From the NCBI RefSeq assembly GCF_000092105.1, contig NC_014148.1:4380001-4412000 (forward strand): a stretch of 32,000 bases of DNA. Direction: 5' to 3'. The first letter of the stretch is position 1, and each line of letters opens with the position of its first letter. Of this stretch, positions 1,419 through 27,833 are shown piece by piece. The notes under the pieces are model-generated. The model was given only the letters and a program-made list of their open reading frames with translations, was not told the origin of the DNA and did no database searches. The stretch comes from Planctopirus limnophila DSM 3776. GTDB taxonomy: Bacteria > Planctomycetota > Planctomycetia > Planctomycetales > Planctomycetaceae. The translations under genes were made by a program, and so were the position numbers.

Positions 1419-2645
1419 TTGCTGGGTATGTGCATGTCGATTTCTCTCCATCCATTAACCAAAAACGATTTGAAGATTGATGGCTCGTTGGCTCGATGTC
1501 AGTTGCCGTGGGAGAACCTGAATCTGCAGGACGCTGACTTTGCTGTGCGGGCCGTCGAACAATTGCTTCGCCTGGCGATTGATGAGCGTGCGAGTGATGT
1601 GCACCTGGTTCCCTCCCCTGCAGGATTGCAGATTGCCTTCCGGCAAGATGGTTTGCTGGAGCCGATGGGGAGCTTTCCACCTGAGGTTTCGCCACTGATC
1701 ATCAATCGCATCAAAGTTCTGGCTCAACTGCTGACTTATCGGACGGATCTGCCTCAGGAAGGCCGCCTCAGGCTTCCCGAGTTTCCGGGGGAATTGCGGG
1801 CGAGTACTTTCCCGACCATTCATGGCGAAAAGGTAGTGGTGCGCCTCTTTATTGGTTCCGGGCAGTATCGAGTGCTGGATGAGCTGGGCTATACACCTCA
1901 GGTGCAACTCGGATTGGAGCAGGCATTATTGCAGACCAGCGGGATGCTGCTGTTGACCGGGCCAGCCGGGAGTGGAAAAACGACGAGCGCTTATGCCTGT
2001 TTGAGGTGGCTGCAAGCCTATCGGAAAGGGCAATGCAGTCTGGTCTCGCTGGAGGATCCCGTCGAAGCGTTTCTTCCGGGAGTTTCGCAGACACAGGTTC
2101 GCAGGGGCACGGAATTCAATTATGCCCTCGGATTAAGGTCACTTTTACGGCAAGATCCCGATGTGATTTTTGTGGGGGAAATTCGCGATGCCGAGACGGC
2201 ACAGACGGCCTTTCAGGCCTCACTGGCGGGTCATCTGGTGATTTCCACGTTTCATGCGGGCTCAGCCGGAGATGCGATTTGCCGGCTGACAGATCTGGGA
2301 GTTGAACCTTTTCTCCTCCGCACCGGCTTGATTGCCGTGCTGTGCCAGCGACTCGTCAAACGACTGGTCAAAGATCGAGAGACTCCCTTATCAACCCGGC
2401 GATATGAGGGGCGTTTTGTCGCTGCGGAACTGATGGAGCCGGAATTGCATCACCTGGCTCGACCCATTATGCGCAAAGTGAATGGCAAGCGTCTTGAGGA
2501 ACTGGCAGCCCGGCATGGTTTCGTTCCCTTACGGGAGGCGCTCGAAGAGGCTGTCCGTACCGGGAAGACCGACTTGCCCGAAGTTTATCGAATTCTCGGG
2601 ACTCGACCAGTGGAAGAACGCCGGGATGTTGCTGAGGAATTATAG
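1419..2645 (+). CDS. GspE/PilB-family secretion ATPase (T2SS/T4P assembly ATPase), short form
   Basis: Motifs present: Walker A LLTGPAGSGKTT, Asp box SLEDPVE, Walker B DPDVIFVGEIRD, His box LVISTFHAGSA, and the N-terminal ASDVHLVP...FRQDGLL...INRIKVLAQL...PQEGRLRL motif typical of T2SS_E. There is no CxxC...CxxC zinc motif after the His box. The track start is a TTG; ATG at 1428 or 1434 is a possible true start. Confidence 0.9.
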   Translation: MLGMCMSISLHPLTKNDLKIDGSLARCQLPWENLNLQDADFAVRAVEQLLRLAIDERASDVHLVPSPAGLQIAFRQDGLLEPMGSFPPEVSPLIINRIKVLAQLLTYRTDLPQEGRLRLPEFPGELRASTFPTIHGEKVVVRLFIGSGQYRVLDELGYTPQVQLGLEQALLQTSGMLLLTGPAGSGKTTSAYACLRWLQAYRKGQCSLVSLEDPVEAFLPGVSQTQVRRGTEFNYALGLRSLLRQDPDVIFVGEIRDAETAQTAFQASLAGHLVISTFHAGSAGDAICRLTDLGVEPFLLRTGLIAVLCQRLVKRLVKDRETPLSTRRYEGRFVAAELMEPELHHLARPIMRKVNGKRLEELAARHGFVPLREALEEAVRTGKTDLPEVYRILGTRPVEERRDVAEEL

Positions 2646-2739
2646 ATTCAGATCATGGATATGTAATCGCATTGATGGTATCAACTCTCAATATTGATAA
2701 GATAAACACATCATACGGATTCCAATAAACAACGGCGGC

Positions 2740-2823
2740 GGGTGGCAGGGGTTGAGTCTTCGAACCCCCAGCGATTGTCGGCACGAACTGGGGGTTCGCG
2801 AAGACGTTTGGCGCCAGCCACCC
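2740..2823 (+). promoter_or_regulatory. Strong nested stem-loop in the 276-bp ATPase-platform spacer (candidate cis-regulatory RNA structure)
   Basis: A perfect 10-bp stem, cgaaccccca (2761-2770) / tgggggttcg (2789-2798), extends to about 14 bp with a 2-nt bulge (tcttcg...cgcgaaga). An alternative partner ggggtt lies at 2748-2753, and an outer pair gggtggc (2740-2746) / gccaccc (2817-2823) encloses it. No U-run follows. Confidence 0.35.
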
Positions 2824-2921
2824 CATGCCAAGGAGCGCAGTCGAACACTGCCATCTGTATAAGTTAAACATACATATTTTATTGATATACCGTGACCCAT
2901 TAGAAAATCTGCGGGCGCATC

Positions 2922-4010
2922 ATGTCTGCCACACCGGCTGTTGTTATCTCTTCTGCGGCACTCAGGGCTCTGAATCAAGAACTGGCCCTATTGATTCGGG
3001 CAGGAATTCCTTTAGAAATCGGGTTTCAGCAACTGGGGCGAGGTTCATCGAGTGATCTGGCCCGCCTCGCAGAACGCATTGGCGAGCGATTGCAGCAGGG
3101 ACAGGCCCTCGATCTCGCGATTGCTTCAGAAAACACGCCGGAAGCTCGGCTCTACGCCACGATTGTCCAACTCGGGATTCGCAGTGGTCGGCTTCCGGAA
3201 ATGCTCGAATCGATGGCACATCTGGGTGATCAGATGTCAGCCGTTCGTGAAGAGTTTCACAGAGTCGCGATCTACCCGACAATCGTTGTCGTGTTGACGT
3301 ATCTGTTAATCTGCGGACTGGCAATCTGGTTTATACCCCGCTGGCTCCTGACGTTGGAGATGTTTCGTATTCAGGGGGGCTGGATCGAGGTCGCTTTGCG
3401 CCTGATCCATGATTACGCCAGTTACTGGATGCCTGCGATACCGATCCTGGCGATGATTGTCCTCTGGGCTGCGGGAAGGACATCGATTGTCCGGGCAGGT
3501 CTATTGGAGACGAGAGCCAGTGTCTGGCCTGGTTTGCAGGTGGTGAGTGGCGCACTGTCATGGCTGATCGGTCTTCCGGATGCAGTGCGGTGGGTGCAAT
3601 GGCTGCATATCTGCGGCCTGCTGACGAAAGAAGGCTTGCCCATAGAAGAATGTTTAAAATCATCGAATTATCTGTTGGGAACGGGGCGTATGCAGCAAGA
3701 TTCGCGGGAAGCGTTGCAGGCCATTTCCGCCGGTATCAGCCCGGAGGCAGCGTTGTTGCGAATTCGTGATCTGCCCCCCTTTGTGGCCGATGCCATTGAG
3801 ATTGGCGTGCGTACCAATTCGCTCCCAGTGGCTCTGGAGCTGTCGACCGGTGTGATGTTTCGTCAGTTGCAGTCCCGCCTCGAATGGTTATCGGGATTGA
3901 TTCCGCTGGTGTTAACCTTGCTGATCGGGGGAGGTTGTGGAGTGCTTTATGTCGTCGCGGTCTTCGGGCCACTCATGGTCTTCTGGTCAGGGTTATCGCT
4001 CCAATCGTGA
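2922..4010 (+). CDS. GspF/PilC-like inner-membrane platform protein, paralog 1 (two T2SS_F-like halves)
   Basis: First half: ALNQELALLIRAGIPLEIGFQQL...ATIVQLGIRSGRLPEMLESMAHL, followed by a TM helix. Second half: LLTKEGLPIEECL...ADAIEIGVRTNSLPVALE, followed by a C-terminal TM helix. This is the classic duplicated GspF architecture. Confidence 0.75.
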   Translation: MSATPAVVISSAALRALNQELALLIRAGIPLEIGFQQLGRGSSSDLARLAERIGERLQQGQALDLAIASENTPEARLYATIVQLGIRSGRLPEMLESMAHLGDQMSAVREEFHRVAIYPTIVVVLTYLLICGLAIWFIPRWLLTLEMFRIQGGWIEVALRLIHDYASYWMPAIPILAMIVLWAAGRTSIVRAGLLETRASVWPGLQVVSGALSWLIGLPDAVRWVQWLHICGLLTKEGLPIEECLKSSNYLLGTGRMQQDSREALQAISAGISPEAALLRIRDLPPFVADAIEIGVRTNSLPVALELSTGVMFRQLQSRLEWLSGLIPLVLTLLIGGGCGVLYVVAVFGPLMVFWSGLSLQS

Positions 4011-4142
4011 CAAGGAAATCCAGTGTCATCAATAAAAAAGCCAAGTATGTAGTAGACAGACATGTATGCAGATGCCCATCGAACGTTGAGTCAATAATTA
4101 TCATCGGCGATCTCGCGGGTGGGGTTTTACAGAGGATGTGAG

Positions 4143-5363
4143 ATGCCTGAATATCTCTATCAAGCGATCAAGGCGAGCGATCCTTCGCCTGGAGCATTGT
4201 CGAGAACGGCAACACGCGAAATCATCCGCGGGAGGATGAAAGCGGCCAGCGACAATCTGCTGGGGGAATTGCTGCGTGAAGAGGGATTGGAGCTGATCAG
4301 TTTTGAGCGCGCCGATCGCCTGGAGTCGTTCGGGCTCGCAGTACTTCCGATTTTCCCTGAAGTCACGACCGATCATCCGGCACAGACGGAGATCCCGCCG
4401 GAACTCTGTTTACGCCTGCTGGCAGAAGAAAGCCCGTCCCGCAAAGACCGCAAAAAACTGCTGCATGCCTGGAAACGTTATCGACATGATCAGGATCTCG
4501 CGGCCACGATTCAGTTTGCCGGTACGGCATTACCAGCCGATCTGGGAGTCTACCTTAACTATTTACAAGATGGTCGTCTGACAACGGCCCTCTTACGCGA
4601 ATTGATGCTGGCACGGGCCAGAGAAAAACTGTTTCGCCAGCGGATTTTCTTTCAGATTGGAACCCCGTTTTTATGGTATATCGTCACCGTCATGATTCTG
4701 GTGGCTGCAGGGACAATTATTGTTCCTCGATTCAAAATGATGTTTGATGATTTCGGAACTCGCCTCCCGATATTTACCAGCCTGGTGATCGGATTTTATG
4801 ATTTTCTGGCTGGCTATTCGCTGATACTGCTTTTCCTGGTCGCACTGGCAATCGGCAGTTGCGTGATCCTGACGCGATTCACAACCTTCGGGCGTTTATA
4901 CCGCCGGTTGATGATCTATGTTCCTCTAATAGGCCGCCCGATATATCATTTAAAGTCAGCGACCTATACAGAAGTCTTCAGCCTGACTTTGCCCTGGTCA
5001 TTACCGCTCCCCGTGGTGGCCCGGCTTGCGGCTTTGATCGCCGAAGAGCCGCTTTTTGAAGAGTCGACCGAAGAGTGGATTGAACAGATGGAACAGGGAA
5101 AAGCTCCTCAGGATGCGTTTGGTGAAAAGACCTTTCTTCCCGCTTCAATTGCCAGTTTATTCCGCCTGAAGACTTCGCCTCATGGTTTGCAGGATGCCTG
5201 TAAGTTATTAGCAGCCTCGTTTGTCATCCGGGCCATTGCCCATGTAAAGATCGGCGTCTTCTGTATGCCTCAATTGATGGTACTGACTTGCGTACTGACC
5301 GTCGGGATTGTGTTGTTCGCCATGTTTTCACCATTGTTTATGCTGCTGAACGATTTGTCATAA
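4143..5363 (+). CDS. GspF/PilC-like inner-membrane platform protein, paralog 2
   Basis: It has a GspF-style N-terminus (MPEYLYQAIKASD), the motif TIIVPRFKMMFDDFGTRLPIFTSLVI, then TM helices, VPLIGRPIYHLKSATYTEVFSL and a terminal TM helix. I prefer ATG 4143 (AGAGGA at 4131-4136) over the track's GTG at 4119. Confidence 0.75.
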   Translation: MPEYLYQAIKASDPSPGALSRTATREIIRGRMKAASDNLLGELLREEGLELISFERADRLESFGLAVLPIFPEVTTDHPAQTEIPPELCLRLLAEESPSRKDRKKLLHAWKRYRHDQDLAATIQFAGTALPADLGVYLNYLQDGRLTTALLRELMLARAREKLFRQRIFFQIGTPFLWYIVTVMILVAAGTIIVPRFKMMFDDFGTRLPIFTSLVIGFYDFLAGYSLILLFLVALAIGSCVILTRFTTFGRLYRRLMIYVPLIGRPIYHLKSATYTEVFSLTLPWSLPLPVVARLAALIAEEPLFEESTEEWIEQMEQGKAPQDAFGEKTFLPASIASLFRLKTSPHGLQDACKLLAASFVIRAIAHVKIGVFCMPQLMVLTCVLTVGIVLFAMFSPLFMLLNDLS

Positions 5364-5441
5364 TGCAACGTCTGTTAAGGCTTTCGGGCAGGATTTTACT
5401 GAGGAGGTCGTCGTGAGTACTGAGGTTGTGGATCAATCATT

Positions 5442-7025
5442 ATGGACCTGATCAGCTTTTCGACGGGACTGAGTCCTCGAAATCTGTTTGAGCTGCTAGC
5501 GATGTTGGTATTACTCAACGTGCCGCTATTACTCATTTCTTTTTTAATGATAGCCGGTTTACGTCTCCCTGCGGCAGGCAGATCATTAACGATCCAGGGA
5601 TCCCATTGGCCAATCATTAACTCAATCCTGTTGTTTGCAGGGAGTGCGATTGTCTTTATCTTGGGAATGCTGGCTTTCATGACTCCCTGGATGCTGGTCG
5701 ATGTCTGGCTTCTCCTCAAGTTGTTGCTGGCGGTATTTTTATCGATTCCGGGGATCGCCATCGGGATTATTGGCTGGCGTGCCGCCTATATCCGCTGGAA
5801 CGTCGAGCGGGATCCTGCCCTGCGCTACGATTTACTCCACCACCGCACTCTGAAAAGTGCCCGGCTCAAGTTGCGATTTTTGGCGGTCAATCAAATCTGT
5901 CTGCTGGTGATCTGCCTGAGTATCGTTCCCGTGCTGGGTCTGGGGGCGTTTATGTTCTGGATTCTGCTGATGACCGTTTTGATGGGTGTCATCACCTGGT
6001 ATGGATTCCAGAATCGGGTGGAACAACTGGGCACTCGCTGGGCACTGGTCAGCGTGTTCAGCGGTGGGCAGGATGTGCGCGATGAACTTGTGGGCTGGGA
6101 TGATTTCCCTTCACGGGGAGTCCGTCGGCAGATGAGTGCGATCTCGAGAGATATGGATTACGGGATTGAATGGGTGCCTGCGTTGGCGGCCAGTACAGAG
6201 ATTCTCGACTCGCCAGATACGTTTCTCGCAGCGAATGCTTCGCCTCAGGCCTTAGCCAAGTCGCTCCGGCAGGATGTGCAGCAGAGTCTCAATGAATTCC
6301 AGAGTGAATTGCGACAATCGTCTCATAAGCTTTATGAAATTTTTCTGATGACGCTCCTGGTGGCTGCGGGAGTTTATGGATTTATTGGTGTATTTATCAT
6401 TCCGAAGATACTCAGGATCTTTAACGACTTTGATATCGAGACCCCGTGGTCATTGCAGATGTTGATCTCTGTGAAAGGTCACATCCTCTTGTTCGCGGGT
6501 GCTATGGTTTCGTCGTTACTGGCGACAATCCTTGTCCTGGGGATTCTGCATCGCGGTTTTACCGGCGAGCAACCGTGGGTGCTGGGCGTGTTTGGGCAGA
6601 TCTTTTATCAACTGAAGCGGCCATTAATTTTGCGGGGTTTGGCTGCGACGATTCAGGGTGGACGAAGTATTGAAGATGACCTTGATCGTCTGGCCGATGT
6701 CGAGGTTTCTACGCGATTGGCGAATCGATTGCGAATGGTGGCACAGGCGATCCGCCAGGGATATGACTGGCCCGTGGCACTGGTTAAGTATCGATTTCTG
6801 AAAAGTCATGAGTTACCGCTGATATTGACGGCACGGGAAGCTGGGCAGGTGGCATTTACATTGCGGGAAATCGCCGAGATGCAATTGCGTCAACAAAGTC
6901 GCATCTGGAATTGGTATGCGGAGTTTGTCGGTCCAATCTTTGTGATCATGATTGGTGTGTGTGGACTGTTTCTCGGTTACGGAATTATGAGCAGCTTAAC
7001 GACGATGATGAGCAGCCTGTCATGA
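5442..7025 (+). CDS. Polytopic membrane protein with a single C-terminal GspF/T2SS_F-like domain and a novel ~290-aa N-terminal region with about five predicted TM helices
   Basis: The C-terminal half contains FIGVFIIPKILRIFNDFDIETPWSLQMLI, TM helices, ILRGLAATIQGGRSIEDDL...LILTAREAGQVAFTLREIAE and a terminal TM helix. The N-terminal half is several hydrophobic helices with no motif I recognise. Confidence 0.65.
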   Translation: MDLISFSTGLSPRNLFELLAMLVLLNVPLLLISFLMIAGLRLPAAGRSLTIQGSHWPIINSILLFAGSAIVFILGMLAFMTPWMLVDVWLLLKLLLAVFLSIPGIAIGIIGWRAAYIRWNVERDPALRYDLLHHRTLKSARLKLRFLAVNQICLLVICLSIVPVLGLGAFMFWILLMTVLMGVITWYGFQNRVEQLGTRWALVSVFSGGQDVRDELVGWDDFPSRGVRRQMSAISRDMDYGIEWVPALAASTEILDSPDTFLAANASPQALAKSLRQDVQQSLNEFQSELRQSSHKLYEIFLMTLLVAAGVYGFIGVFIIPKILRIFNDFDIETPWSLQMLISVKGHILLFAGAMVSSLLATILVLGILHRGFTGEQPWVLGVFGQIFYQLKRPLILRGLAATIQGGRSIEDDLDRLADVEVSTRLANRLRMVAQAIRQGYDWPVALVKYRFLKSHELPLILTAREAGQVAFTLREIAEMQLRQQSRIWNWYAEFVGPIFVIMIGVCGLFLGYGIMSSLTTMMSSLS

Positions 7026-7717
7026 ATCAACAACTCATAAAAAACTACGACGGGGAGTCGCGAATTCATGGTTCGCTTCATTGCCATAGCGCAGGTCAGT
7101 CAGTGATGGTTTCTCGAAACCTTGATCGAGGAGCGAGAGCGGGTCTGTTTCTGCAGGATCTGTTCATCGCGATCATCTTATTCAGTGTGATGGTGGGCTG
7201 CCTCGTGCCGATGTTTTCGTTTGTCGCCCGTTCGCGGCGGCTGGCGTATCAGGAACAGCTCGCCTGTCAGATCGCAGCGAATTGTCTCGATGACATCATC
7301 GCTGCCTCAGTAAAAGATCGCGATGCCGTGTATGAAGTATTGGAAAAAGGGTGTTATCTGGAGGAATTGCCGGCTCAGTTTCTCCAACCTGAGGCCGGAT
7401 TGAGTGACTCGTTTCGCGAGCGGCTGCTCGCCAGTCTTCTTGCTGGCGAAAGATTGCCAGTCGCAAAGCTGCAGTTGACCCGGAGTCCGGGTCAGTTCCA
7501 GTGGCAGCACGATGCTCAGGTGGCTCCATTCGATGCAGGGCCACTTGAACAATGGGAGGTCGCGATTGACTGGCAGATCACACAAGGTGCAAAAACTTCG
7601 CACGAGAGGCATGCTCCACTCAGACTGAGTGGCTGGATTCCGGCCACATCGGCAGAGATGAAATCTCAGCCACCAGCCACTGCCAGCAAGGAGTTTGTTG
7701 AGGAGGGTGTTCAATGA
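7022..7717 (+). CDS. Small bitopic protein with a degenerate pilin-like N-terminal helix (putative minor pseudopilin or assembly factor)
   Basis: The start ATG at 7022 overlaps the upstream stop (ATGA at 7022-7025). The segment ...GARAG/LFLQDLFIAIILFSVMVGCLV resembles a class III signal, with Asp rather than Glu at +5. The longer track ORF from 6911 would overlap the upstream gene by 115 nt. Confidence 0.45.
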   Translation: MNQQLIKNYDGESRIHGSLHCHSAGQSVMVSRNLDRGARAGLFLQDLFIAIILFSVMVGCLVPMFSFVARSRRLAYQEQLACQIAANCLDDIIAASVKDRDAVYEVLEKGCYLEELPAQFLQPEAGLSDSFRERLLASLLAGERLPVAKLQLTRSPGQFQWQHDAQVAPFDAGPLEQWEVAIDWQITQGAKTSHERHAPLRLSGWIPATSAEMKSQPPATASKEFVEEGVQ

Positions 7718-8556
7718 GCATGCTGAAGATAACTCTTTTGCAGCAGCGGAAAGTGACTGGCAAGCTGGTGTGTGCCGATGTAGCAGTGAGTCGTACGCGA
7801 ACTTCGCCCCGGCGTGGGCATTCCTTGATTGAGATGCTGGTGGCGATCTCGGTGATCGGGATGATTATTCCACTCGTCTTCACGATGATGGTGACGATGT
7901 TGCAGGCCCAGGCAGGGCAGGCAGATCGCATGATGAGCATGATCAGCCTGCGTCGGCTGGCGACAGATTTCCGGCGGGATGTCTGGAGTGCCTCACAAGT
8001 CAAGATCTCGGCTGAAGCCAAGACCCTTCAGCTCCAGACTCCGGCCATCACTCATCCCGAAATGACGCGAAAAGCCGATCTCCCCATTACCTACCGCATT
8101 GAACAACGGCCCCATGAGCTTGTGGTTCATCGAGAAGTTTCAGGAAGCCAGACGGATGATAACTCGCCCGCTGATGCTCGCGGTACGGCAACTTCTGATC
8201 GCTATATTTTTCCCTATGCGACTGCGGAATGGATTGTTTCTGATGTAAAGGTGCGGGCCGGTGAAGGATCTGAATCGGCCTTCGTCAGTCTGGAAATCTC
8301 CTTGCCACCTCCTTTAGTCACTACTCGCACGGGATCGAGCGGCAGTGCGGACACTCCGAAATTGTGGAAGACCCGAATCTCCGCGACAGCCGGGCAATCT
8401 CAGATGATTCGTGCCCCGATCAAGCGAGAATGGCTGGGTGATCAAACGAAGGTTCACGAGGATGAACTAATTCAGCAGCCAGCCGACGCCACGACTCCCG
8501 AGAACCGGGGCCAAAAGGCTCCACCAGCGCAGAATCTTCAGGGAGTCAAGCCATGA
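7714..8556 (+). CDS. Prepilin-type N-terminal cleavage/methylation-domain protein (pseudopilin)
   Basis: The class III signal SPRRG/HSLIEMLVAISVIGMIIPLVF is close to canonical, with Glu at +5. There is an ATGA overlap with the upstream ORF (7714-7717) and AGGAGGG at 7701-7707. Confidence 0.7.
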   Translation: MSMLKITLLQQRKVTGKLVCADVAVSRTRTSPRRGHSLIEMLVAISVIGMIIPLVFTMMVTMLQAQAGQADRMMSMISLRRLATDFRRDVWSASQVKISAEAKTLQLQTPAITHPEMTRKADLPITYRIEQRPHELVVHREVSGSQTDDNSPADARGTATSDRYIFPYATAEWIVSDVKVRAGEGSESAFVSLEISLPPPLVTTRTGSSGSADTPKLWKTRISATAGQSQMIRAPIKREWLGDQTKVHEDELIQQPADATTPENRGQKAPPAQNLQGVKP

Positions 8557-9020
8557 AGTCTTTCTCTGAGGGTCAAGTACGAATTGATACGCGGTCGCGA
8601 CGTGGATCGGCGACGACGTTTGTTGTCGCTGCACTGGTGCTTTTTGGGTTGACATCCACTGCTCTGGTGATTTCAGCCGTAATGTTATTACAGCAGGGTG
8701 AAAGTACGCGCCGGACACTCCAGATGGATTATCTTGAGCGGGGAGCCGAAGAGGTACTCAGGCAAAATCCCCAGGGGATGTTCTCTGCGGAGAGCCAGCA
8801 GCGAGATGGCGTGATGAGTCAACCACAGCAGGTTCTGGAACTCGCGACCGGACGCGAGCAGGAACGGGCGCGCATTACTTACCGCCTGATCCGGGAGGAG
8901 CACCTGACTCCGCAAGAAAAGCCTGAGAGCCAACTTTGTGAAATCCAGGTTGAACTCATGATTCGTGAGAAAAAGATTGTTTCGCGGCGATCTTACTTAT
9001 GGTTATCACCGAATCAGTGA
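8553..9020 (+). CDS. PilX_N/GspK-like minor pseudopilin-like protein
   Basis: The N-terminus SRRGSATTFVVAALVLFGLTSTALVISAVMLL matches the RGxAL-type hydrophobic N-terminus of PilX/GspK-class proteins, which lack Glu+5. There is an ATGA overlap with the upstream ORF (8553-8556) and AGGGAG 7 nt upstream. Confidence 0.5.
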   Translation: MKSFSEGQVRIDTRSRRGSATTFVVAALVLFGLTSTALVISAVMLLQQGESTRRTLQMDYLERGAEEVLRQNPQGMFSAESQQRDGVMSQPQQVLELATGREQERARITYRLIREEHLTPQEKPESQLCEIQVELMIREKKIVSRRSYLWLSPNQ

Positions 9021-9091
9021 TTTGCGAATCGATTGACATTTAAAAAACAGATCAACATTCAATAATAGTTTACAGATCAAGGTCGTCTCTC

Positions 9092-10288
9092 ATGATCAGA
9101 TTATGGATGCAGTCAATGATTACCAGGCATAAGTTGACGAAGGCATGCTTGCCCGGGGCTGCACGCATGGCACACAGAGGACTCTTATTTTTTAGAACGC
9201 CCGTGACAGCTCGGCAGAGGCAGATTATCCGCACGGGATTTACCTTGATTGAGTTACTGGTGGTGATTGCGATTATCGCCATACTCATTGCGTTGCTGTT
9301 GCCGGCAGTGCAGCAGGCTCGTGAGGCGGCTCGAAGAACTCAATGTCGTAATAATCTTCAGCAACTGGTGCTGGCGATCCACAACTATATGGCGGCACAT
9401 GAAGTTTTGCCGCCCGGGAGTCAGAATGCGACAGGGCCGGTGCATAACCTGCCAGATGGCTATCACATGGGCTGGATGACACAGATTCTGCCCTATATTG
9501 AGCAACCAGCAGCTTTTCGACACATTGACTTTACCAGCTCAGTCTATTCACAAGCCAACCAGCCAGTGCGGGGGAGAGCGTTCAGCGTGATGCAGTGCCC
9601 CAGTTCTGTAAATACATTTTCTGACGAAAGCCTGCCGCAAAGCTGGGGGGGGAGTACATCGTATGCGGGAGTGCATCACCCTGTCGGGGCGTATGTCAAC
9701 TCCGGTCAATTGGGAGTTTTCTTTTTAAATAGTTCAGTCCGCTATGAAGAAATTGAAGACGGGAGTTCGAATACGTTGTTTCTGGGTGAGTATGAAGACC
9801 CGCGTGATTATGGCCCTGGGACTCTCTTGGTCAATTTGAGTTGGATGTCGGGGACTCGGGCTTCACTAAGGAATGGTGGTTTGAGAATCAATGAGTGGAG
9901 ATCACAAATATCGAATCAGTTCCAGGGGCCGATGAATCCACTGGGAGGCGAAGAGAATGCCGGTGAAATGCTTCCGGGCTGGATCGACGAAACGACCAGC
10001 GAAGAGACCCCCGACGAGGCAACGAGCGATCCTGTGGCTCAACCCGGGGAATCGGCCGGTGAACCCGAGAAGACATTGACACCTGAGGAGATTACACAGG
10101 CTCAAATCGACAGAATTGTGGCCAAGATAGGGCCTGCAACCGGTGGTTTTTCGAGTCTTCACACCGGGGGTTGTCATTTTGCCCTAGGTGACGGGAGTGT
10201 GCGGTTCTTAAGCGAAAACATCGATATGAAGACGTTTCGCATGTTGATGGATCGCCAGGACGGGCGGTTGTTGCCGAGTGACTTCTGA
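9092..10288 (+). CDS. DUF1559 / prepilin-type H-X9-DG protein (paralog 1), with an acidic insertion
   Basis: The N-terminus is [51 protein letters not shown]. The C-terminus [23 protein letters not shown] gives an exact H-X9-DG motif at 10160-10195. The true start is uncertain; in-frame ATGs occur at 9092, 9107, 9116 and 9167. Confidence 0.9.
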
Positions 10289-10737: not shown

Positions 10738-12534
10738 ATGGGTTTCATGAGACAACTGTTCTGGATGTCTGCACTTAGCCTGATGCTGGCTGCCACGGGT
10801 TTCTGGAGTGTTCCTGAGGCCATGGCCCAGGGGACAGCAACCAAAGGGACAGCGACCAAAGGTGCTGCCGCCGCTGCAGCCGAAGAAGAGGATGATTATC
10901 TGGCCGCCGAGTTTCTCGTGCCGCCCCAGACATCATTTTTCGTGGCCTTTCCTGATGTTCCCGGCCTGGTCGAAGGTGTTAAGGCTTCGACCTTTGGCAA
11001 GCTGCTGGCGGATCCTGATTTTCAGCCATTTCTGAACGATGTGAAGGCCAAAATTGAAGAAGGTTCGAGCAAGCTGAAGGAAGAATTGGGACTGACGCTG
11101 GAAGAGCTTCTTTCAGTCCCTCAAGGTCAGGTGGCGATTGCCGTATTTCCCACGGAAAGTGGTGAAATCTCGGGGATTTTGATGGCGGATTATGGTGACT
11201 CGGAAGAGACCATCAAGACGCTCATCGGCAAGATGGAAGCGGCCCTCAAAGAAGAAGGTGCCGAGATTTCTGCCGAGAAGATGGATGATGTCAGCGTGAC
11301 GATTGTCACTTTGCCAGAAGAGAAAGTGGCAGACAGCCCTGTGAAGCAGTTGGCATACTTCCTCAGCGAAGGAACCTTTGTGTTCGCCACTTCGAAGGAT
11401 GCCGCTGCGGCCATTCTGGATCGCTGGGATGGTGAGAACGAAGACGTGTTTGCGAAGAACGAAGCCTTCACTCTGGTGATGGATAAGGTCGGTCGCAAGG
11501 ATGACAGCATTGAGCCCGACTTCAAGTGGTTCGTGAATCCCGTTCTGCTGACCGAGCAGATTGCTACCGCTGTTCAGGAACAGCAGCCACAGGCTCAGTC
11601 AGTCATTGGTATGCTCCCAGTGCTGGGGCTCGACAAGCTCAAGGGTGTGGGCGGTTCGATGATTATCGACGAAGACGACTTCGATTCGATCGTCAAGACT
11701 TATGTCCATGTGGAACAGCCAACCTCCGGCGTGATCAACTTCTTCAAGTTCCCTGCGATTGCGATGACACCTCCCAAGTGGGTCGGTGCCAATGCCGCGA
11801 TGTACACCGGTCTGAACTGGGATTTCCAGGCAGCGTATGCTGCTGGCGAAGCCTTGTATGACTCATTTGCTGGTGGTGGTGCCTGCGCCCGTTTTATGGA
11901 TTCGGTGGCCCAGCAGCCACCGAATATCCACCTGAAGAAGGATGTGATTGATCTTCTGAGTGGAAAGTTGCACTTCACTTCCACAGGAACCGGGATCTCG
12001 GAAGAGAATCCTGTTGGTGACCTGACGCTGGCAATCGAAGTCAAAGATACCAGTGCGGCGTCCAAGCTGATTGCGAAGCTGCTCGATCTGGGACTGGCCC
12101 CACACGAAACCCGTGATTTCGAAGGTCAGAAGATTTACGAATTCGAAACTCCTCAGGAAGGCATCACTCCCGCTCTGGCAGTCACTGCGAACGCGATTGT
12201 GATCACAGCCGACGTCAAAGTGATCGAAGGGATTGTTCGCGGGACGCGCACTCCTTTGTCGACCTCGCCAACTTACAGCAAGCTCTCGAAGTTCTTCCCG
12301 GCGAAAGTCTCGGCGATCACCTTCCAGAAGGGTGATGCACAGCTCAAGACGATTTACGAGCAACTCCGAGCCGGTGAAGGGATTGCTGCTGAAGCGGAAG
12401 GGCTCGACTTCAAGAAGTTGCCACCTTTCGAAAAACTGGCCAAGTATCTGCGATCTTCCGCAGGTTACTCGACCAACGACGACAGTGGCTCACTGAGCGT
12501 GCAATTCACTCTCAAGGAAGCAGATCCCAAGTAG
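10738..12534 (+). CDS. Secreted protein of unknown family (signal peptide, GTATKGTATKG repeat, poly-Ala/acidic linker)
   Basis: The N-terminus MGFMRQLFWMSALSLMLAATGFWSVPEAMAQG is a plausible Sec signal. The frame is long with uniform acidic globular composition, and an intrinsic terminator follows it. I recognise no catalytic motif. Confidence 0.7.
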   Translation: MGFMRQLFWMSALSLMLAATGFWSVPEAMAQGTATKGTATKGAAAAAAEEEDDYLAAEFLVPPQTSFFVAFPDVPGLVEGVKASTFGKLLADPDFQPFLNDVKAKIEEGSSKLKEELGLTLEELLSVPQGQVAIAVFPTESGEISGILMADYGDSEETIKTLIGKMEAALKEEGAEISAEKMDDVSVTIVTLPEEKVADSPVKQLAYFLSEGTFVFATSKDAAAAILDRWDGENEDVFAKNEAFTLVMDKVGRKDDSIEPDFKWFVNPVLLTEQIATAVQEQQPQAQSVIGMLPVLGLDKLKGVGGSMIIDEDDFDSIVKTYVHVEQPTSGVINFFKFPAIAMTPPKWVGANAAMYTGLNWDFQAAYAAGEALYDSFAGGGACARFMDSVAQQPPNIHLKKDVIDLLSGKLHFTSTGTGISEENPVGDLTLAIEVKDTSAASKLIAKLLDLGLAPHETRDFEGQKIYEFETPQEGITPALAVTANAIVITADVKVIEGIVRGTRTPLSTSPTYSKLSKFFPAKVSAITFQKGDAQLKTIYEQLRAGEGIAAEAEGLDFKKLPPFEKLAKYLRSSAGYSTNDDSGSLSVQFTLKEADPK

Positions 12535-12580
12535 TTCAGACTGAGTTCTGCTTACCACGCGGATGGTAAGTACTCTCCAA

Positions 12581-12613
12581 GCCCTCTGTCAGGTAATGGC
12601 AGAGGGCTTTTTT
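12581..12613 (+). terminator. Rho-independent terminator
   Basis: Stem gccctctg (12581-12588) / cagagggc (12600-12607), an 11-nt loop, then tttttt (12608-12613). It sits 47 nt after the stop at 12534. Confidence 0.8.
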
Positions 12614-12775: not shown

Positions 12776-14611
12776 GTGGCGAGACCTGTGAATCCGCGTC
12801 AAGAGAGCAAGCCTGCAAAACGCCCCGTCCGCTCAGCGGGCGACAAACCAGCACCCGGTATGTTGTCGAAGCTGGCACAGCTCACGCCGGCTTTCTGGCT
12901 GGTGATTGGCCTCGCCACAGTGATTCGATGCTGGGGAATATGGAATCAAAGCGTCGAACACTTTGATGAAGGAGTTTACGCTTCGAACATCTGGTTCGGG
13001 CCTGACCAGGGTTACGAATATCCGGCCCGGTTTTTCTATGCGCCCCCACTCTGGCCATTGGTGCTCGAATGGACACAACTGATCGGTGCCATGCTGGGCC
13101 TTGGGCATCCCGGTTGGTTGGTCATGCTGCCGGGCATTCTTTGCGGTATTGCCCTGTGTGGAGTGATTTACTCTTTTGGCAAAGAGTTTTTCTGTGAGCA
13201 AGTGGGTTTGATCGCGGGATTGATGGCCGCCTGTTCGGATCTGCTGGCAAGTTACTCACGCACAGGTTTGACCGATATTCCCGTGACTCTCTGCATGTTG
13301 CTGGCGGTTCGCGCCATGATCCGCTCGCTCACTACTCCGGCACAGAAAAACTTCCCCTGGGGATCCATCTTCGCTGCGGGAGGCTGGACCGCTCTCGGAT
13401 GGAGCATCAAATACTCAGGCTGGCTGCCACTGGCGATTCTCCTGGCGGCTGAGTTTGCCGGCTGGATCCTCAAATGCCATGTCCTGCCGGCTGCGCGGGT
13501 GCAGAAGATGACCGTCAGCATTTGTGCGATTGCCGTCGTGCTGTGGCTCCCTGTGCTCTGGGGACTGCAAGCCACTGGTGGATATGCAGCCGTCTCGGCC
13601 AATCATGCCCAATATGTGACGGGTCTGGGGCAGTGGTTCACGCAATTCCAGAATCAATGGGAGACGATTCGGCACTACTCGACCTACTTCTCGCTGGCTC
13701 TGTTGGCATCGTGCATTGTCGCTGCGGGTTATCTTCGAGTTGGCGGGCTCACAATCTTACACTGCAACTGGTTATTACTTTTTTGCGTGTTGGCCTTGGG
13801 AACAGGTGATCTCACCATCTGGATGATTGGCGGCTTCATCGGTGCTTACTGGGGACTGATGCAGCCGAAGTTTGCGGCAGTGGAATCAGAAATCCCCGAA
13901 ATTCGCATGACACAAGCCGTCGCACCCATCGAAGTTACGAGGATCGCCGTCTTGTTTTTACTGACCTGGATGACCGGGTTATTGCTCTCGATCCCGATGT
14001 ATCGATCCTATCCACGACTGCTGACACCGATCTTGCCACCAGCGTTTCTCCTGTTTTCGTACGGGTACCATCGCTACATCGCCACGAGAACCAATATTTA
14101 TCTGAATCAAGGAGTGCTGATTGGGAAGATGCTCTCTCGCGCTAAGCAGCTTCTGGTCCTGGCACCCCTGCTCCTGCTGGGAAGCTTTTCACCACTTTTG
14201 AAGAAGCAAGAGTTTCCGTTCCATGCGTGGCAGGATCGGACTGCGATGCTGGAAACAAGTCGCACATTCCTGCAGACGGTTCGCAGGCAGACACCTTCCG
14301 GCAAGCCAGCGATCATTTACGTCTACGGTGAGCCCGCCATTTTCTGGCAATTGCGAGCGCAAGGATTTGTACTCACAGGCCCGGTGCAGGATTTAAGATT
14401 TATTGAACGCGACTCACCGGCTGAGGTCTGGCTGGTCGTGGGGCCGCACGCCCGAAGAAACTCGCAATTTCTCGAAGCGTGGAAGCAGTCGGGGATGCTG
14501 TTCACCAAAGAAAACGAATCATCAGTTCGAGTAAGCGATATTGTGCGGAGAGATGATGAATCAAAGGAAGAAACAGCCCTCTTCGAGCTGTATCGACTCC
14601 ACCCACCATAA
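12776..14611 (+). CDS. Polytopic glycosyltransferase, GT39/PMT_2 (ArnT-like) family
   Basis: It has about 12 or more predicted TM helices. The first loop carries VEHFDEGVYASNIW...FYAPPLWPLVLEW, which resembles the DE-x-x-Y and hPPL motifs of ArnT/PMT-type lipid-carrier-dependent glycosyltransferases. The C-terminal domain is soluble. The start is GTG 12776, or ATG 12860. Confidence 0.65.
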   Translation: MARPVNPRQESKPAKRPVRSAGDKPAPGMLSKLAQLTPAFWLVIGLATVIRCWGIWNQSVEHFDEGVYASNIWFGPDQGYEYPARFFYAPPLWPLVLEWTQLIGAMLGLGHPGWLVMLPGILCGIALCGVIYSFGKEFFCEQVGLIAGLMAACSDLLASYSRTGLTDIPVTLCMLLAVRAMIRSLTTPAQKNFPWGSIFAAGGWTALGWSIKYSGWLPLAILLAAEFAGWILKCHVLPAARVQKMTVSICAIAVVLWLPVLWGLQATGGYAAVSANHAQYVTGLGQWFTQFQNQWETIRHYSTYFSLALLASCIVAAGYLRVGGLTILHCNWLLLFCVLALGTGDLTIWMIGGFIGAYWGLMQPKFAAVESEIPEIRMTQAVAPIEVTRIAVLFLLTWMTGLLLSIPMYRSYPRLLTPILPPAFLLFSYGYHRYIATRTNIYLNQGVLIGKMLSRAKQLLVLAPLLLLGSFSPLLKKQEFPFHAWQDRTAMLETSRTFLQTVRRQTPSGKPAIIYVYGEPAIFWQLRAQGFVLTGPVQDLRFIERDSPAEVWLVVGPHARRNSQFLEAWKQSGMLFTKENESSVRVSDIVRRDDESKEETALFELYRLHPP

Positions 14612-20110: not shown

Positions 20111-23100
20111 ATGCCCGCCGAGAATAGACCGGCATCACCGAAGTCTCCCGAGAGCGCGCCCAAAGATGCGACGCCTGTCTCTATTCCTATTGTCTCTGCC
20201 CGCGAACGTTTGGATGCTCTCAAAGAACTCGGCCGCTACAAAATCGAGCGCAAGCTCGGTCAGGGAGGCATGGGAACTGTCTTCTTGGCCAGGGATACGG
20301 AACTGAAACGTCTGGCTGCGATCAAGATCCTACCCGAAGACAAAGCCCAGAACCCGATTCTTGTCAAACGCTTCCGTGCCGAAGCCCAGGCAGCGGCTCA
20401 ACTGCGACACGACAACATTGTGACAGTCTATGACAGTGGTGAGCAGGATGGGTTGCTTTACATTGCCATGGAATATGTCGATGGCCCGGATGTCTTTGAC
20501 CTGATTCAAAAGCGCGGACGCATTGCTCCCCGCAGATCGTTGGACATCATCCGCCAGACCACACTGGCGCTGCAGCATGCTTACGAAAAGAATATTGTTC
20601 ATCGAGATATCAAACCCTCGAACCTGATGATCCGGCGGGATGGTGTTGTCAAAATCACCGATCTGGGTCTGGCCCGTTCGATTGATGAAACACTCGAAAC
20701 AAATATCACGCGTGCCGGTACCACGGTCGGCACGGTCGATTACATGTCTCCCGAGCAAGCCCGCAACAGCAAGCTGGCCGATATCCGCAGTGATATCTAT
20801 TCACTGGGGTGCACCTGGTATCACATGCTCACAGGGACAGCTCCTTATGCCGAAGGTGCTGTCACCAACAAATTGCATGCACATGCGGTCAAACCCATTC
20901 CTGATCCACGCGATATCAATCCCGAGGTTCCTGAAGGTTTTGTCGCGGTTCTGCAGCGGATGATGGCGAAAAAGCCAGCCGACCGATATCAGACGCCTGC
21001 TGAACTTCTCAAAGATCTCGATGCCCCTTCACTGAAGCGAGTCAGTGCGGCTGATGAAATTGCCCGCGAAGTGGCGCGAGAACTGGAATCTGATGAAGCT
21101 CTGACGCCTGCCAGGGAAAACGTTTCCAGTTCCGGTCGACAAAAACTTGCCACTGCTGGAGGACAATCGTCGTCGGGTGGGTACTCGCGACCCGTTGAAC
21201 ATCGAGAATCCCGAAATGCCGATGGCCGGGAAGAAGGTCATAAGCCCTCGACCTTGCCACCCCGGCGTGCACCGGCTGGGGGCGATCCTTCCACCCCGAT
21301 TTCTTTTGACTTCCGCAAGCTCGTCATCCCACTGGTGGCGATTGCAGGTGTGGGAGCACTCATCTGGTTCGGAAAGACATTGGCCGATTTTGGCAATGTC
21401 TTTGGACTTGGCAGCACACCCGTACCGGCACCCGTACAGGGTTCATTCTTTGAAAACAATGGATCAGAGACGGAAGTCACCACTCCCACTCAGGTGACAC
21501 CGGCTGAAGCTGCAGCCGGTGCAAACCAGTCTGCGACAGGTACGAATCCATCGACAGGTCAGAATTCCGCTCAAGCTCAACAGGCCGGGGCAAGCAACAA
21601 CATGTCTCCGGCCACGACGGCTCCGCTCATCGTGCCTGAGCAAGCGAGAATTGCGGAAGTTCCCAAACCCTCGCTGACAGAACTTCCCCGCTGGACACTC
21701 GAACCTTTTTCTCAAACCGGTTTGCCAGTGATTACTGTCTCTACCTCGGCAACCGGCCCGGGGACAGCCAAAACCATCACTGAAGCGATCAAACGAATTC
21801 CTCCGGCAGGCGCGATCCTGAAGCTCTCCTCGAAAGAGCGTCACGACCTTCCCGCTGGCTTATCCATTCGCACCGAACGGCTGCTGATTACGGGTGATCA
21901 AGGCTTTGCCACAATTCATCTGCTCCCCGAATCTGATGCTTCATCCGAGACCTCGGGAAAGAAAAACACCACAGGCGAAGCTGCTCCAGGAAATGGCGTT
22001 AAGCCACTCGTCTCTGGCCTGACCATCATTTCTAAACAAGTGCAGTTGGAAAAATTGCACTGGCTGGCGGAGGCGGATGTCTCAACGAGCCTGAATGCAC
22101 TGGTTCGTGTTGAATCCCCCCGGCTGACAGTCCGTGAATCCTCAATGACGGCCCTCCTCGGATCCAATGCCAATCAAGAGCGTGCGCCGGAGAGTCTGCT
22201 CACTGCAGTTGACTGGCAGAACACAGCGAACGGTGCCACGTTCGACCGTGGCGGACAATTGCTGATCGATACGTTGTTCACTCGTGGTGCACAACTGGGG
22301 GCAGTCTCCATTTCTGGCGGTGCCAGCCAGAGCGTGCTGAGGCAATCCTTGTTTTTAGGTGGTGCTGTTCCGCTGGTGCGAATGAATCCTGCCGGTTCGA
22401 ACGGCAGCCCGAATGTCGGCACCAATGGGTCCGAAGTTCGCCGGGCATTGCTTCTCCAGCACGTCACCGCTTTGACGAGTGATTCGATCGTTGAGATTAA
22501 GCCACCTGCCGATGGTCAACCTGTTGATGGTTTGTGGCTGGGTCTGTCGGAGAGCGTGTTTGCTGGGATGTCGACAGGTAAGAAGACTTCATCGCTGATT
22601 CGAGCGGCTGGTTGGCCGCAGAATCCGAATCGTCAGGCCGATGAATCGCGCCTTGTCGATTTTTCGATTGCCAGCGAACGCAACCTGTGTTGTGGATTAT
22701 CGAGATTATACGACTCGGGTGAAAGCACAGGGCTGCAGGTGACAGACCCTCTGACCTGGAGAAGATTCTTTGCCACTGATTTTGATGGGCAGGCTCGACC
22801 AGAGTTGTGGCCTGGGAATTCACTCCCGGTGAATCCTGCTGAAATCGAAAAATGGTCGCCGGCACTGGTCGATACATCGGCCATCCCAGACGCTCCGCTC
22901 TCGAAAATCTCAGCCATACTGGGCTGTGATGTCACTCTTCTTTCGACCCCAGCTTTGACCGATCAGAGTTGGTCAAAAGTTTCGACACCACTGCTCAAAC
23001 TCAGGCAGCAACTGGACCCTGCAAATCCTAAAGAGACGACCACACTCGATCTTGCCACTTACGGGAACGATCTGGGCCAGCTCCTTTCGCGGTCGGATAT

Positions 23101-24232: not shown

Positions 24233-24442
24233 AGTCGATCACCAGCCTCATCCTCGAACAAAAACTTTCCTGAGGAGATAGAGGATGATGAGAATGAAAT
24301 TCAGATTAGGTTTGTTTTTGATTTACCGCTAAACTTTGACCAGAATTCAGTAGTCCACATGATTTATCAACCGCCATCGACCGTTCGATGCTCTTCAAAA
24401 ATTCAACAGTCACCAGCTCATCTTCACTGCGGAGAATCTTCT

Positions 24443-25396
24443 ATGAATGGCTCACCCGTTGCGGATCATCCCCTTTTCCCTTCGGCTCTGGCACAACGTG
24501 GCCCGTCCCGAAGTCGCAGTGGATTTACTCTCATTGAACTGCTGGTGGTGATCGCCATTATTGCCCTGCTGATCGCCCTGCTATTACCTGCCGTTCAACA
24601 GGCACGCGAAGCCGCTCGGCGTACTCAATGCCTGAGTGCTCTGCATAACCTGATTCTGGCCTTCGAGAACTACGAAAGTGCCCATCGTTCCTATCCTTCC
24701 GGGTGGCTCGATTCTGGCAATGTGTGTACCGAAGCACTTTCCTTTCCTGAACCTGCTCAAATTCCCCTCGCTGGCAATCAGGTGCTCACTTTGACCAACT
24801 GGACCATGCCCGATTTCTGGGCCTGGAATGCTCTGGTCCTGGCACAGCTCGACCAATCGACCATCAATATCAACTTTGGCATCCCCCGGCTCGATTCCAA
24901 TAATAGTTGCACGCCAGTCGCCCAGAATCTGCAGGCCGCACAGACCAAGATCGATATCTTTATCTGCCCCAGTGCGACATTGCCCAATGCTCGCCCGAAC
25001 AACTACGGTTACTCCACCTACCGTGGTGCTGCCGGTACCTCGGATTCCAATGGCCCCCGCTACAATGGCATGCTCTATCGCAACAGTGCCGTCGGCAAGC
25101 GCGATGTGACAGATGGCCTGGGCCAGACGATTGTCGTTGGCGATTCGCTCTTTGGCTTCTGGTCGGATGGTTACAGCTGCTGCGTTTCTTACCCGGATGG
25201 TCAGCAACAATTGTTTGATTTCCATGCCGCCAATGGAACAATCAACCTGTTCTCCTTTGGCAGCAATCATGGCCAGATTGCTAACTTTGCAATGGCCGAT
25301 GGTTCTGGTAAGTCGATCTCAAAAGCCATCGACAGCACGATCTTCCGCGCTTTGCAGACACGCAATGGCCGCGAGAATGTTGGCGACAACTTCTAA
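24443..25396 (+). CDS. DUF1559 / prepilin-type H-X9-DG protein (paralog 2)
   Basis: The N-terminus is [40 protein letters not shown]. The C-terminus [24 protein letters not shown] gives H-X9-DG at 25268-25303. I prefer ATG 24443 (GGAGA at 24431-24435) over the track start at 24359. Confidence 0.9.
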
Positions 25397-27079: not shown

Positions 27080-27610
27080 TTACTGGCTGATGGACAGCGA
27101 CGAAGTTTGCAGCGCATAGCTGTCAGCCATGGCCAAGGTCCGATTGGCTGACTCTTCGGAGATGACTCGTTTGATGTGCCGGTGGCAGGCCATGCAGCCA
27201 CCCCCTGCACCACATGCCGAAATCACTTGCCGTACCGTCTGCAATTCACCGATCTGAACGGATTCGCGCACCTGATCTTCCGAGACTCGCAGGCAATGGC
27301 ACAGGTACCGCCTCTGGCTCACCTGAGAAACCCGGCAAGCCGACTCTCGCCCGTACGTTGAATCTGTCAGGCAGGAAGTGCTGGCACCACAAGGTGTGCT
27401 TGATCCACAGGGAGTGCTGGCTCCGCAGGTACCTTCCATCTCACAGTATTGCGGGCTGGGACACTCGGACGATTGTCCCGCGGCGAATGGTGCGGAGGAT
27501 GAATCCAGAGTCGCTGAACTCTGTGAAGAATCACAGTGACTCACCGTAGCGCAAGCCTCGGTGAGTGGCACATGACCATCATCAATGGGGAAAGAAATCG
27601 TCATGAACAA
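27080..27610 (-). CDS. BFD-like [2Fe-2S]-binding domain protein with a Cys-rich repeat N-terminal extension
   Basis: The C-terminal YLCHCLRVSEDQV...ACGAGGGCMACHRHIKRVI has the C-x-C...(33 residues)...C-x2-C spacing of bacterioferritin-associated ferredoxin. The N-terminal half has 8 further Cys, including the tandem repeat TCGASTPCGSSTPCGASTSC (27371-27427). Confidence 0.7.
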   Translation of the reverse strand: MFMTISFPIDDGHVPLTEACATVSHCDSSQSSATLDSSSAPFAAGQSSECPSPQYCEMEGTCGASTPCGSSTPCGASTSCLTDSTYGRESACRVSQVSQRRYLCHCLRVSEDQVRESVQIGELQTVRQVISACGAGGGCMACHRHIKRVISEESANRTLAMADSYALQTSSLSISQ

Positions 27611-27721
27611 ATTCAGTCCAACACAGGCGGGAGAATCAGGCTGGAGACTGCAATTGAGACTCAGTGTCAGAAGTCACCCTTGAGTATTGGGGTTCCACGA
27701 AGGATCGTCAACACCTTTACG

Positions 27722-27771: not shown

Positions 27772-27833
27772 AAAATTGTCGTAACTATCAACACACAAGC
27801 GAGATGCAATCATTTTCACCAGTCGATCATCTC

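Follow-up and report, generated by a model that had tools for sequence, protein, structure and literature searches.

The closest described relatives of the locus considered here belong to the type IV filament (T4F) superfamily (TFF). In the reference classification of this superfamily (Denise, Abby & Rocha, 2019; PMC6668835), sets of an ATPase, a platform protein and a pilin that fit neither type II secretion systems (T2SS) nor the type IVa pilus (T4aP), type IVb pilus (T4bP), MSH, Tad or Com types are generic. The eight-gene block at positions 1419-10288 of a 32,000-nucleotide stretch of the Planctopirus limnophila DSM 3776 genome (contig NC_014148.1, positions 4,380,001 to 4,412,000; hereafter the window) is likewise composed of ATPase, platform and pilin genes, fits none of these types and would be filed as 'generic' by that classification. 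The main text of the same study contains no mention of Planctomycetes or Verrucomicrobia, and the triple platform and the DUF1559 partner that characterize the block are absent from it. The block is probably the assembly module of an unnamed T4F/TFF subtype specific to the Planctomycetes-Verrucomicrobia-Chlamydiae (PVC) superphylum, which would build a DUF1559-based pseudopilus without a linked secretin. In the literature searched, no operon of the composition E-F-F-F-pp-pp-pp-DUF1559 (E, ATPase; F, platform; pp, small pilin-like protein) was described, and neither a function nor a machinery was assigned to the DUF1559/H-X9-DG prepilins.

With the pseudopilus of the T2SS the block shares an ATPase that is closest to GspE, a GspF-type platform, a GspG-like helix, a GspK-like minor pilin without Glu+5 and the absence of a retraction ATPase. 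It differs from the T2SS in that no secretin or GspC/L/M is linked to it in the genomes examined, the ATPase has no N1 domain and every equivalog cut-off is missed. Moreover, it has three platform paralogues instead of one, and its subunit measures 300-400 amino acids (aa) and has a head without a fold match, whereas GspG has about 140 aa. A precedent for a platform of more than one GspF-family paralogue is provided by TadB and TadC of the Tad/Flp systems, each of which is a smaller GspF-family protein. However, the Tad ATPase is of another family (the TadA-type profile scored 29.5 bits with the window ATPase) and the Tad locus encodes a secretin and a peptidase of its own; the accessible part of the P. 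limnophila annotation lists a separate Tad locus, Plim_0794-0798. The BasEF and BasABC proteins of Sulfolobus (PMC3047682) likewise comprise an ATPase and a platform, together with three small pilin-like proteins, and serve larger proteins that carry class III signal peptides. That system occurs in archaea and the proteins it serves are true binders of sugars, whereas the DUF1559 head gave no match to a solute-binding protein (SBP) fold.

Organization and conservation of the eight-gene block

It was originally predicted that eight co-directional genes form one unit. All eight were confirmed on the + strand by the listing of open reading frames (ORFs) and by profile searches, which identified the T2SSE, T2SSF, N_methyl, DUF1559 and H-X9-DG domains. 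Their order is E-F1-F2-F3-pp1-pp2-pp3-DUF1559:

1419..2645 (likely start ATG 1434), + strand: ATPase E, short, GspE/PilB family, 403-408 aa, PF00437 T2SSE
2922..4010, + strand: F1, GspF/PilC-like platform paralogue, 362 aa, three transmembrane (TM) helices, PF00482 T2SSF
4119/4143..5363, + strand: F2, platform paralogue, 406-414 aa, three TM helices, NCBIfam HofC and GspF
5442..7025, + strand: F3, platform paralogue, 527 aa, PF00482 in the C-terminal half
7022..7717, + strand: pp1, predicted minor pseudopilin, ATGA overlap, one N-terminal TM helix, orthologue matches
7714..8556, + strand: pp2, predicted minor pseudopilin, PF07963 N_methyl and TIGR02532
8553..9020, + strand: pp3, predicted PilX/GspK-like minor pseudopilin, orthologue matches to PF14341 PilX_N
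9092..10288 (ATG 9116), + strand: DUF1559/H-X9-DG prepilin, 390 aa, PF07596, PF07963 and TIGR04294

The public gene calls for the locus are, in the same order, 403, 362, 406, 527, 203, 280, 155 and 390 aa. The ATGA start/stop overlaps that had been noted between the small ORFs are real; they lie at 7022 (stop of F3 and start of pp1), 7714 and 8553, which suggests translational coupling.

The first two relatives of the ATPase (52% identity; from Planctomicrobium piriforme and an Isosphaeraceae metagenome-assembled genome) are orphan genes, which suggested that synteny was not conserved. This was rejected by a wider scan, in which an alignment of 37 ATPases was searched against one genome per bacterial or archaeal species and the resulting 80 loci were mapped by phmmer: orphans proved to be interspersed with block-encoded orthologues, and they are scattered among these in the ATPase tree. 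The complete eight-gene order recurred at 18 loci outside the window, in 17 species genomes and on the metagenome contig L004, with the DUF1559 gene always in last place. The carriers span Planctomycetaceae (including Gimesia), Pirellulales (Anatilimnocola and Aeoliella) and Isosphaeraceae, and the start of the block was visible on several shorter contigs. No flanking gene family recurred in more than four of the 18 loci. This indicates that conservation covers these eight genes and nothing beside them, in line with the one apparent unit that had been proposed from the window.

In L004, where the ATPase relative is 53% identical, the eight-gene arrangement around it is the same, and each window protein has its best match in the gene at the same position. 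The identities are 53% for E, 27% for F1, 25% for F2, 27% for F3, 28% for pp2 and 45% for the DUF1559 protein. The positional matches of F1, F2 and F3 imply that the triplication of the platform gene is old. The unit is sometimes split, as follows from the orphan ATPases and from the loci L021, where the ATPase gene lies 3.7 kb from the remainder of the block, and L056, where it is divergently oriented. Variants with two platform genes and an H-X9-DG pilin were found in Verrucomicrobiota. The loci L080 (9971-16202) and L082 (9947-17446) are a two-platform version of the same system, in which a short ATPase is encoded together with two paralogous platform proteins, small ORFs and a pilin of the N_methyl/DUF1559-like kind that has H-X9-DG at its C-terminus. 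In the Tepidisphaerales loci L048 (6983-8002) and L054 (11031-12152) a gene for a sigma factor of the extracytoplasmic function type stands between the short ATPase gene and two platform genes.

The ATPase and the missing partners

The ATPase belongs to the PilB/GspE family (PF00437, 272.8 bits against a cut-off of 24.9) and has an intact Walker A motif, Asp box, Walker B motif and His box. Of the GspE architecture it retains just N2 and the C-terminal ATPase domain: its alignment to the GspE profile covers positions 102-389 of 486, and N1 is absent. Among its PDB relatives EpsE/GspE scored highest (230 bits), followed by PilB/PilF (200-215 bits) and PilT (95 bits). It stays below the cut-off of every NCBIfam equivalog by a factor of about two: 301.9 against 630.25 bits for GspE, 277.1 against 675.65 for PilB and 208 against 300 for ComGA. 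Neighbour joining of 94 sequences placed the short ATPases (about 370-430 aa) of Planctomycetia, Phycisphaerae and Verrucomicrobiota in one group; E. coli GspE and the long GspE/PilB types (560-570 aa), planctomycete ones included, fell outside it. The split between short and long ATPases was present in 59 of the 60 bootstrap replicates. This points to a PVC-specific clade that is separate from the canonical GspE/PilB proteins sampled.

The tetracysteine zinc motif usual in GspE/PilB had been reported missing. For the window protein this is correct: the region of the motif has no cysteine and the zinc-binding loop is deleted (approximately residues 310-335; 2360-2420). A relative with 73% identity is also devoid of the four cysteines and the loop. 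As a trait of the system the absence did not hold, since C-x-C...C-x-x-C is kept in 35 of the 37 members of the ATPase family; the sequences mark it as a loss in the Planctopirus lineage. The idea of a distinct type IV filament-like system is retained on the strength of the conserved unit and of the position of the ATPase, and no longer includes the tetracysteine loss.

No secretin, prepilin peptidase or GspC/L/M was detected with Pfam in any of the large window ORFs, and phmmer with E. coli K-12 GspC/D/L/M/O gave no match among all window stop-to-stop segments of at least 60 aa, in agreement with what had been stated for the 32 kb. Homologues of GspD, GspC, GspL, GspM and GspO were likewise absent from the 10 kb on either side of each of the 18 other block loci. 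As positive controls, the same phmmer search recovered GspD with 1e-19 to 9e-32 beside canonical clusters and GspO (A24) with 6e-8 in a Firmicute locus. The control secretins include a planctomycete one (L086, 7606-18471, Planctomycetales). It is situated about 5 kb 3' of a canonical long-ATPase E-E-F-pilin cluster, of the type that is essential in P. limnophila, and not near a short-ATPase block. Very diverged GspC/L/M analogues may nevertheless exist. The block thus combines an ATPase outside the sampled GspE/PilB proteins with the absence of a secretin, a peptidase and an alignment complex from its surroundings, and the original prediction stands on this point.

In the accessible part of the P. 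limnophila annotation (PMC10632474 supplement), to which all statements on Plim loci here refer, just two secretin genes are listed, i.e. Plim_0794 in the Tad/Flp locus and Plim_3839. A24A prepilin peptidases are encoded by Plim_1841 and, in the Tad/Flp locus, Plim_0796; hence the peptidase that a T4F needs in its genome is available from outside the window.

These findings bear on the possibility that the block is the inner-membrane half of an ordinary but scattered T2SS. The DUF1559 protein would then be the planctomycete GspG, the pseudopilus would push folded exoproteins through an unlinked secretin, e.g. Plim_3839, and the equivalents of GspC/L/M would be too diverged or encoded elsewhere. 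We regard this as unlikely. The ATPase does score best with GspE, among the profiles as well as among PDB relatives, but its clade is set apart from E. coli GspE and N1, the domain that docks on GspL, is lacking. The N-terminus of the DUF1559 protein matches the GspG profile (TIGR01710, 1e-8), one public source names a family member 'PulG-like', and H-X10-DG stands at the equivalent C-terminal site of E. coli GspG; this resemblance, which is one of the motif only, hints that H-X9-DG is the C-terminal hairpin of GspG. The equivalog scores are nonetheless far under their cut-offs, not only for GspE but also for GspF (92.5 against 424 bits) and GspG (35.3 against 88.85 bits). That planctomycete operons are often fragmented and that orphan orthologous ATPases exist agrees with a scattered system, as do the chlamydial T2SS, which likewise has no GspL/M and no minor pilins (PMC6668835), and the second secretin gene listed for P. 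limnophila. Against it, secretin and GspC/L/M genes were not encountered within 10 kb in the 18 other loci, and the secretin of L086 accompanies the other, canonical E-E-F cluster.

Platform, minor pilins and the DUF1559 protein

The three platform paralogues claimed for the block were all recovered; they are deeply diverged and not interchangeable. F1 matches PF00482 in two stretches (106.6 bits) and is a bare three-TM GspF core without an N-domain. F2 has no Pfam match; it is recognized by the NCBIfam models HofC (6e-19) and GspF (1e-16) and has an N-terminal cytoplasmic domain followed by three TM helices, and its orthologue in L004 carries PF28597 T2SSF_N together with PF00482. F3 matches PF00482 at residues 397-516 (45.8 bits), and its GspF-like three-TM core at 280-527 is preceded by four extra TM helices. 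Any one of the three resembles E. coli GspF more than it resembles either of its paralogues. The ComGB equivalog is also missed (54 against 240 bits).

For Klebsiella PulF a trimer has been proposed with a channel that is lined by Tyr168-Pro169 in the first TM segment (TMS1) and Glu370-Pro371 in the third (TMS3), residues described as conserved in all GspF/PilC proteins (PMC10790770). These positions were compared in alignments of 16-17 orthologues per paralogue. In the F1 family Tyr-Pro of TMS1 is kept and the acidic residue of TMS3 is lost. In the F2 family Tyr-Pro is kept and Glu/Gln is variable. In the F3 family the otherwise invariant Pro of TMS1 is lost and that of TMS3 is kept. Such a paralogue-specific relaxation is expected if F1, F2 and F3 hold distinct places in one hetero-oligomer. 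It is attractive to infer that they may form a 1:1:1 trimer, which would fit the model for PulF.

The three small ORFs had been described as pilin-like, which is borne out by one N-terminal hydrophobic helix in each and by the pilin-profile matches of their orthologues. In the window itself pp1 and pp3 have no profile match of their own. If pp1 begins at the alternative start 7106, its leader is short and basic. In Planctopirus the class III motif of pp1 is the degenerate G|LFLQD; RRGFTLVE stands in most orthologues, and 8 of 14 pp1 orthologues match PF07963 N_methyl. A canonical prepilin site (RRG|HSLIEML) is present in pp2, together with matches to PF07963 (22.6 bits) and TIGR02532, and its Glu+5 is invariant in 16 orthologues. 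The hydrophobic N-terminus of pp3 is without Glu+5. Its orthologues read 'RRGxxL...QAxWLAESGxERA', and 7 of 17 match PF14341 PilX_N (best E 6e-5), a pattern that by sequence is the signature of PilX/GspK-type capping pilins. Taken together the features of pp1-pp3 make the set look like a priming or tip complex.

The last gene was predicted to encode a DUF1559/H-X9-DG prepilin, and the scores leave this assignment firm: PF07596 189.3 bits (cut-off 23.3), PF07963 27.1 (cut-off 21.2) and, for the C-terminal H-X9-DG, TIGR04294 38.8 (cut-off 19). Its predicted cleavage site is RTG|FTLIELL. With PF07963 matched by both pp2 and this protein, class III signal peptide subunits are present in the block. 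A second DUF1559/H-X9-DG prepilin is encoded in the window at 24359-25396, directly 3' of the gene for a 1373-aa Ser/Thr kinase (region 20111-25396). The DUF1559 genes that close the block in other genomes match the one of the window over their full length with 170-250 bits, compared with 58 bits for the second DUF1559 prepilin of the window. This indicates that the block carries its own orthologous DUF1559 member and not a random paralogue. The first 40 mature residues of the two window proteins are identical at 36 positions and their heads are about 34% identical, a pattern that agrees with a single filament core or machine constraining many paralogues. In L020 (15179-18600) and L084 (16306-18172) the block is closed by two or three tandem DUF1559 genes, which suggests alternative or additional subunits.

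The expansion of the family that had been asserted holds for Planctomycetota. The 68 DUF1559 proteins of P. limnophila, two of which are essential, make up its largest group of paralogues. The N_methyl plus SBP_bac_10 family counts at least 41 genes per genome and about 90-100 in Tuwongella, where the proteins fractionate with membranes and were recovered in detergent fractions (PMC8567305).

An AlphaFold2 model of the block DUF1559 protein, built from 86 sequences, has a predicted local distance difference test score (pLDDT) of 78.8 and a predicted TM score (pTM) of 0.76. It consists of a 52-residue N-terminal helix, a head with a small beta-sheet, and a disordered acidic insert. Foldseek against the PDB returned no match at E<0.001 for this full-length model or for a head-only model (pTM 0.79). 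No solute-binding protein was among the top matches, the likeness to pilins being confined to the helix, and a sequence profile of DUF1559 matched pilin N-termini only. A solute-binding head, which had been considered because of the Pfam name SBP_bac_10 and the analogy with the bindosome, was rejected as Foldseek detected no periplasmic binding protein fold; that name is thus not backed.

The same models weigh on another explanation, namely that the block corresponds in bacteria to the bindosome (Bas) of archaea. The machine would insert and organize many pilin-anchored DUF1559 proteins as a membrane-tethered layer of periplasmic binding modules instead of a long filament and the three small pilins would act like BasABC. 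Its attraction lies in a gene content identical to that of Bas, i.e. ATPase, platform and three small pilin-like proteins (PMC3047682), and in a very large family of clients that share a constant anchor while their heads vary (68 in P. limnophila, 91-100 in Tuwongella). The recovery of DUF1559 proteins in detergent fractions and the Pfam name itself would also fit. Yet neither model found a fold match, the BasE profile gives 34.2 bits with the window ATPase against a cut-off of 1000, and no ABC transporter is linked to the block. The likeness is organizational only, since BasE/BasF orthology and SBP clients were not found, and we consider this explanation improbable.

Other filament loci, proposed mechanism and flanking genes

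The accessible supplement lists eight GspE-type ATPases for P. limnophila (PMC10632474). As Plim_0753 and Plim_1369 are orphan genes and Plim_0082 lies in a different gene neighbourhood, the ATPase of the block must be Plim_3387 or Plim_4189. Both were non-essential by transposon sequencing, so the block ATPase is non-essential either way, and the system is, as far as these entries go, dispensable for growth in rich laboratory medium. The possibility that the block corresponds to the essential 'secretion' operon Plim_0401-0410 was rejected, as that operon consists of E-PilT-E-F and six hypothetical genes. Like the block it is a T4F-type cluster of P. limnophila, and hypothetical genes specific to planctomycetes come after it (Rivas-Marin et al., 2023; PMC10632474); it differs from the block, however, in its gene order and in being essential.

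A surface T4P-like fibre or a competence-type pseudopilus, serving adhesion, the capture of macromolecules at the crateriform pits or DNA uptake, is in our judgement very improbable. The ATPase does match the PilB (277 bits) and ComGA (208 bits) profiles, pp3 is PilX-like and the minimal set of E, F and pilins recalls the Com operons of monoderms. However, PilT, PilMNOPQ and ComEA/EC are absent in and near the block, and surface pili are served by the separate PilB-PilT-PilB-PilC cluster Plim_0407-0410, PilM and the Tad/Flp locus Plim_0794-0798, all listed in the supplement. Besides, all equivalog cut-offs are missed. For T4aP membership, PilB is under its cut-off, and the block has no second ATPase and no secretin; for a monoderm Com pseudopilus, ComGA, ComGB and ComGC (32 against 75 bits) are all too low.

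A broader reading makes the block the dedicated machine of the whole DUF1559/H-X9-DG family, which would assemble a secretin-independent, heteropolymeric endopilus in the periplasm on an obligate F1-F2-F3 heterotrimer. This appears doubtful. The supplement lists at Plim_0082-0086 a non-essential GspE-type ATPase gene, three hypothetical genes and then a DUF1559 gene. This may be a second ATPase-DUF1559 pairing in the genome and bears on the claim of a single machine for the family. If the broader reading were true, dozens of interchangeable heads would be displayed on a core of near-identical helices for the capture of substrates in the enlarged planctomycete periplasm. The obligate platform would be a natural asymmetric version of the PulF trimer, and a new functional class of type IV filament would extend across the PVC superphylum.

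Several points weigh against the reading preferred here, a PVC-specific module for a DUF1559-based pseudopilus. About one-third of the orthologous ATPases are orphans (e.g. L001, L003, L013, L015, L016 and L019), and in a unit that can be split the missing partners, e.g. a secretin, could equally lie elsewhere. The secretin Plim_3839 is without an obvious partner in the accessible annotation. The loci of Verrucomicrobiota and Phycisphaerae have two F genes, which weakens a strict 1:1:1 trimer. The references in the ATPase tree are thin, consisting of one E. coli GspE and incidentally fetched sequences, so that the tree is no substitute for a full phylogeny. The connection of the block with a filament or with DUF1559 processing is drawn from the genes, and the DUF1559 protein is presumed from the position of its gene to be the major subunit and not a bulky minor or tip pilin.

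For the preferred PVC-specific module a mechanism can be proposed from knowledge of the family, not from experiment. An unlinked prepilin peptidase (Plim_1841 or Plim_0796) would cleave the four pilin-like proteins, of which pp1, pp2 and pp3 would form a priming or tip complex. The ATPase, as a hexamer, would drive a hetero-oligomeric F1/F2/F3 platform, which would polymerize DUF1559 subunits to give a short, inner-membrane-anchored pseudopilus (endopilus). Because a secretin, GspC/L/M, PilMNOPQ and the GspL-binding N1 domain are all absent, the filament would most likely work within the planctomycete periplasm, or else borrow an unlinked outer-membrane conduit. Since the first approximately 40 mature residues are near-identical and the heads differ, other members of the DUF1559 family could be slotted into the same filament core.

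Few paralogous families of Planctomycetota are as large as that of the DUF1559 prepilins, and the operon gives this orphan family a testable candidate machine. One orthologous DUF1559 gene behind a full set of motor, platform and minor pilin genes is a target that can be deleted in a genetically tractable organism. The asymmetrically diverged platform paralogues offer a natural way to test whether T4F platform proteins form trimers or dimers, which is disputed, and, as a secretin is consistently absent, one may ask what role a pseudopilus has inside the periplasm.

Two features follow the block on the same strand:

10738..12534, + strand: gene of a secreted DUF3352 protein (PF11832, 44.3 bits)
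12579..12609, + strand: intrinsic-terminator-like hairpin, 13-bp stem followed by a T run

The hairpin, 3' of the DUF3352 gene, is the sole convincing one of its kind on the + strand and is likely the 3' end of the transcription unit. No strong terminator-like site was present on the + strand between 1419 and 12534, where just three weak stems of 5-6 bp occur, within pp1. A promoter scan gave no more matches than in shuffled sequence. The DUF3352 gene may be a ninth, co-transcribed gene in Planctopirus alone; as no DUF3352 homologue adjoins the block in the other genomes, it is outside the conserved block.

On the 5' side the block is bordered by a divergently oriented amino-acid permease gene (1 to approximately 1070). 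On the 3' side the DUF3352 gene is followed by genes for a PMT_2-type glycosyltransferase, a sulfatase, a hydrolase, the Ser/Thr kinase, the second DUF1559 prepilin and metabolic proteins. The polytopic glycosyltransferase (GT39/ArnT-like, 12776-14611) is encoded just 3' of the terminator and is not conserved alongside the block. At 27080-29360, on the - strand and unrelated to the pilin genes, a protein with a BFD-like [2Fe-2S] domain is encoded next to an Nramp-family transporter; the two are probably a metal-homeostasis pair.

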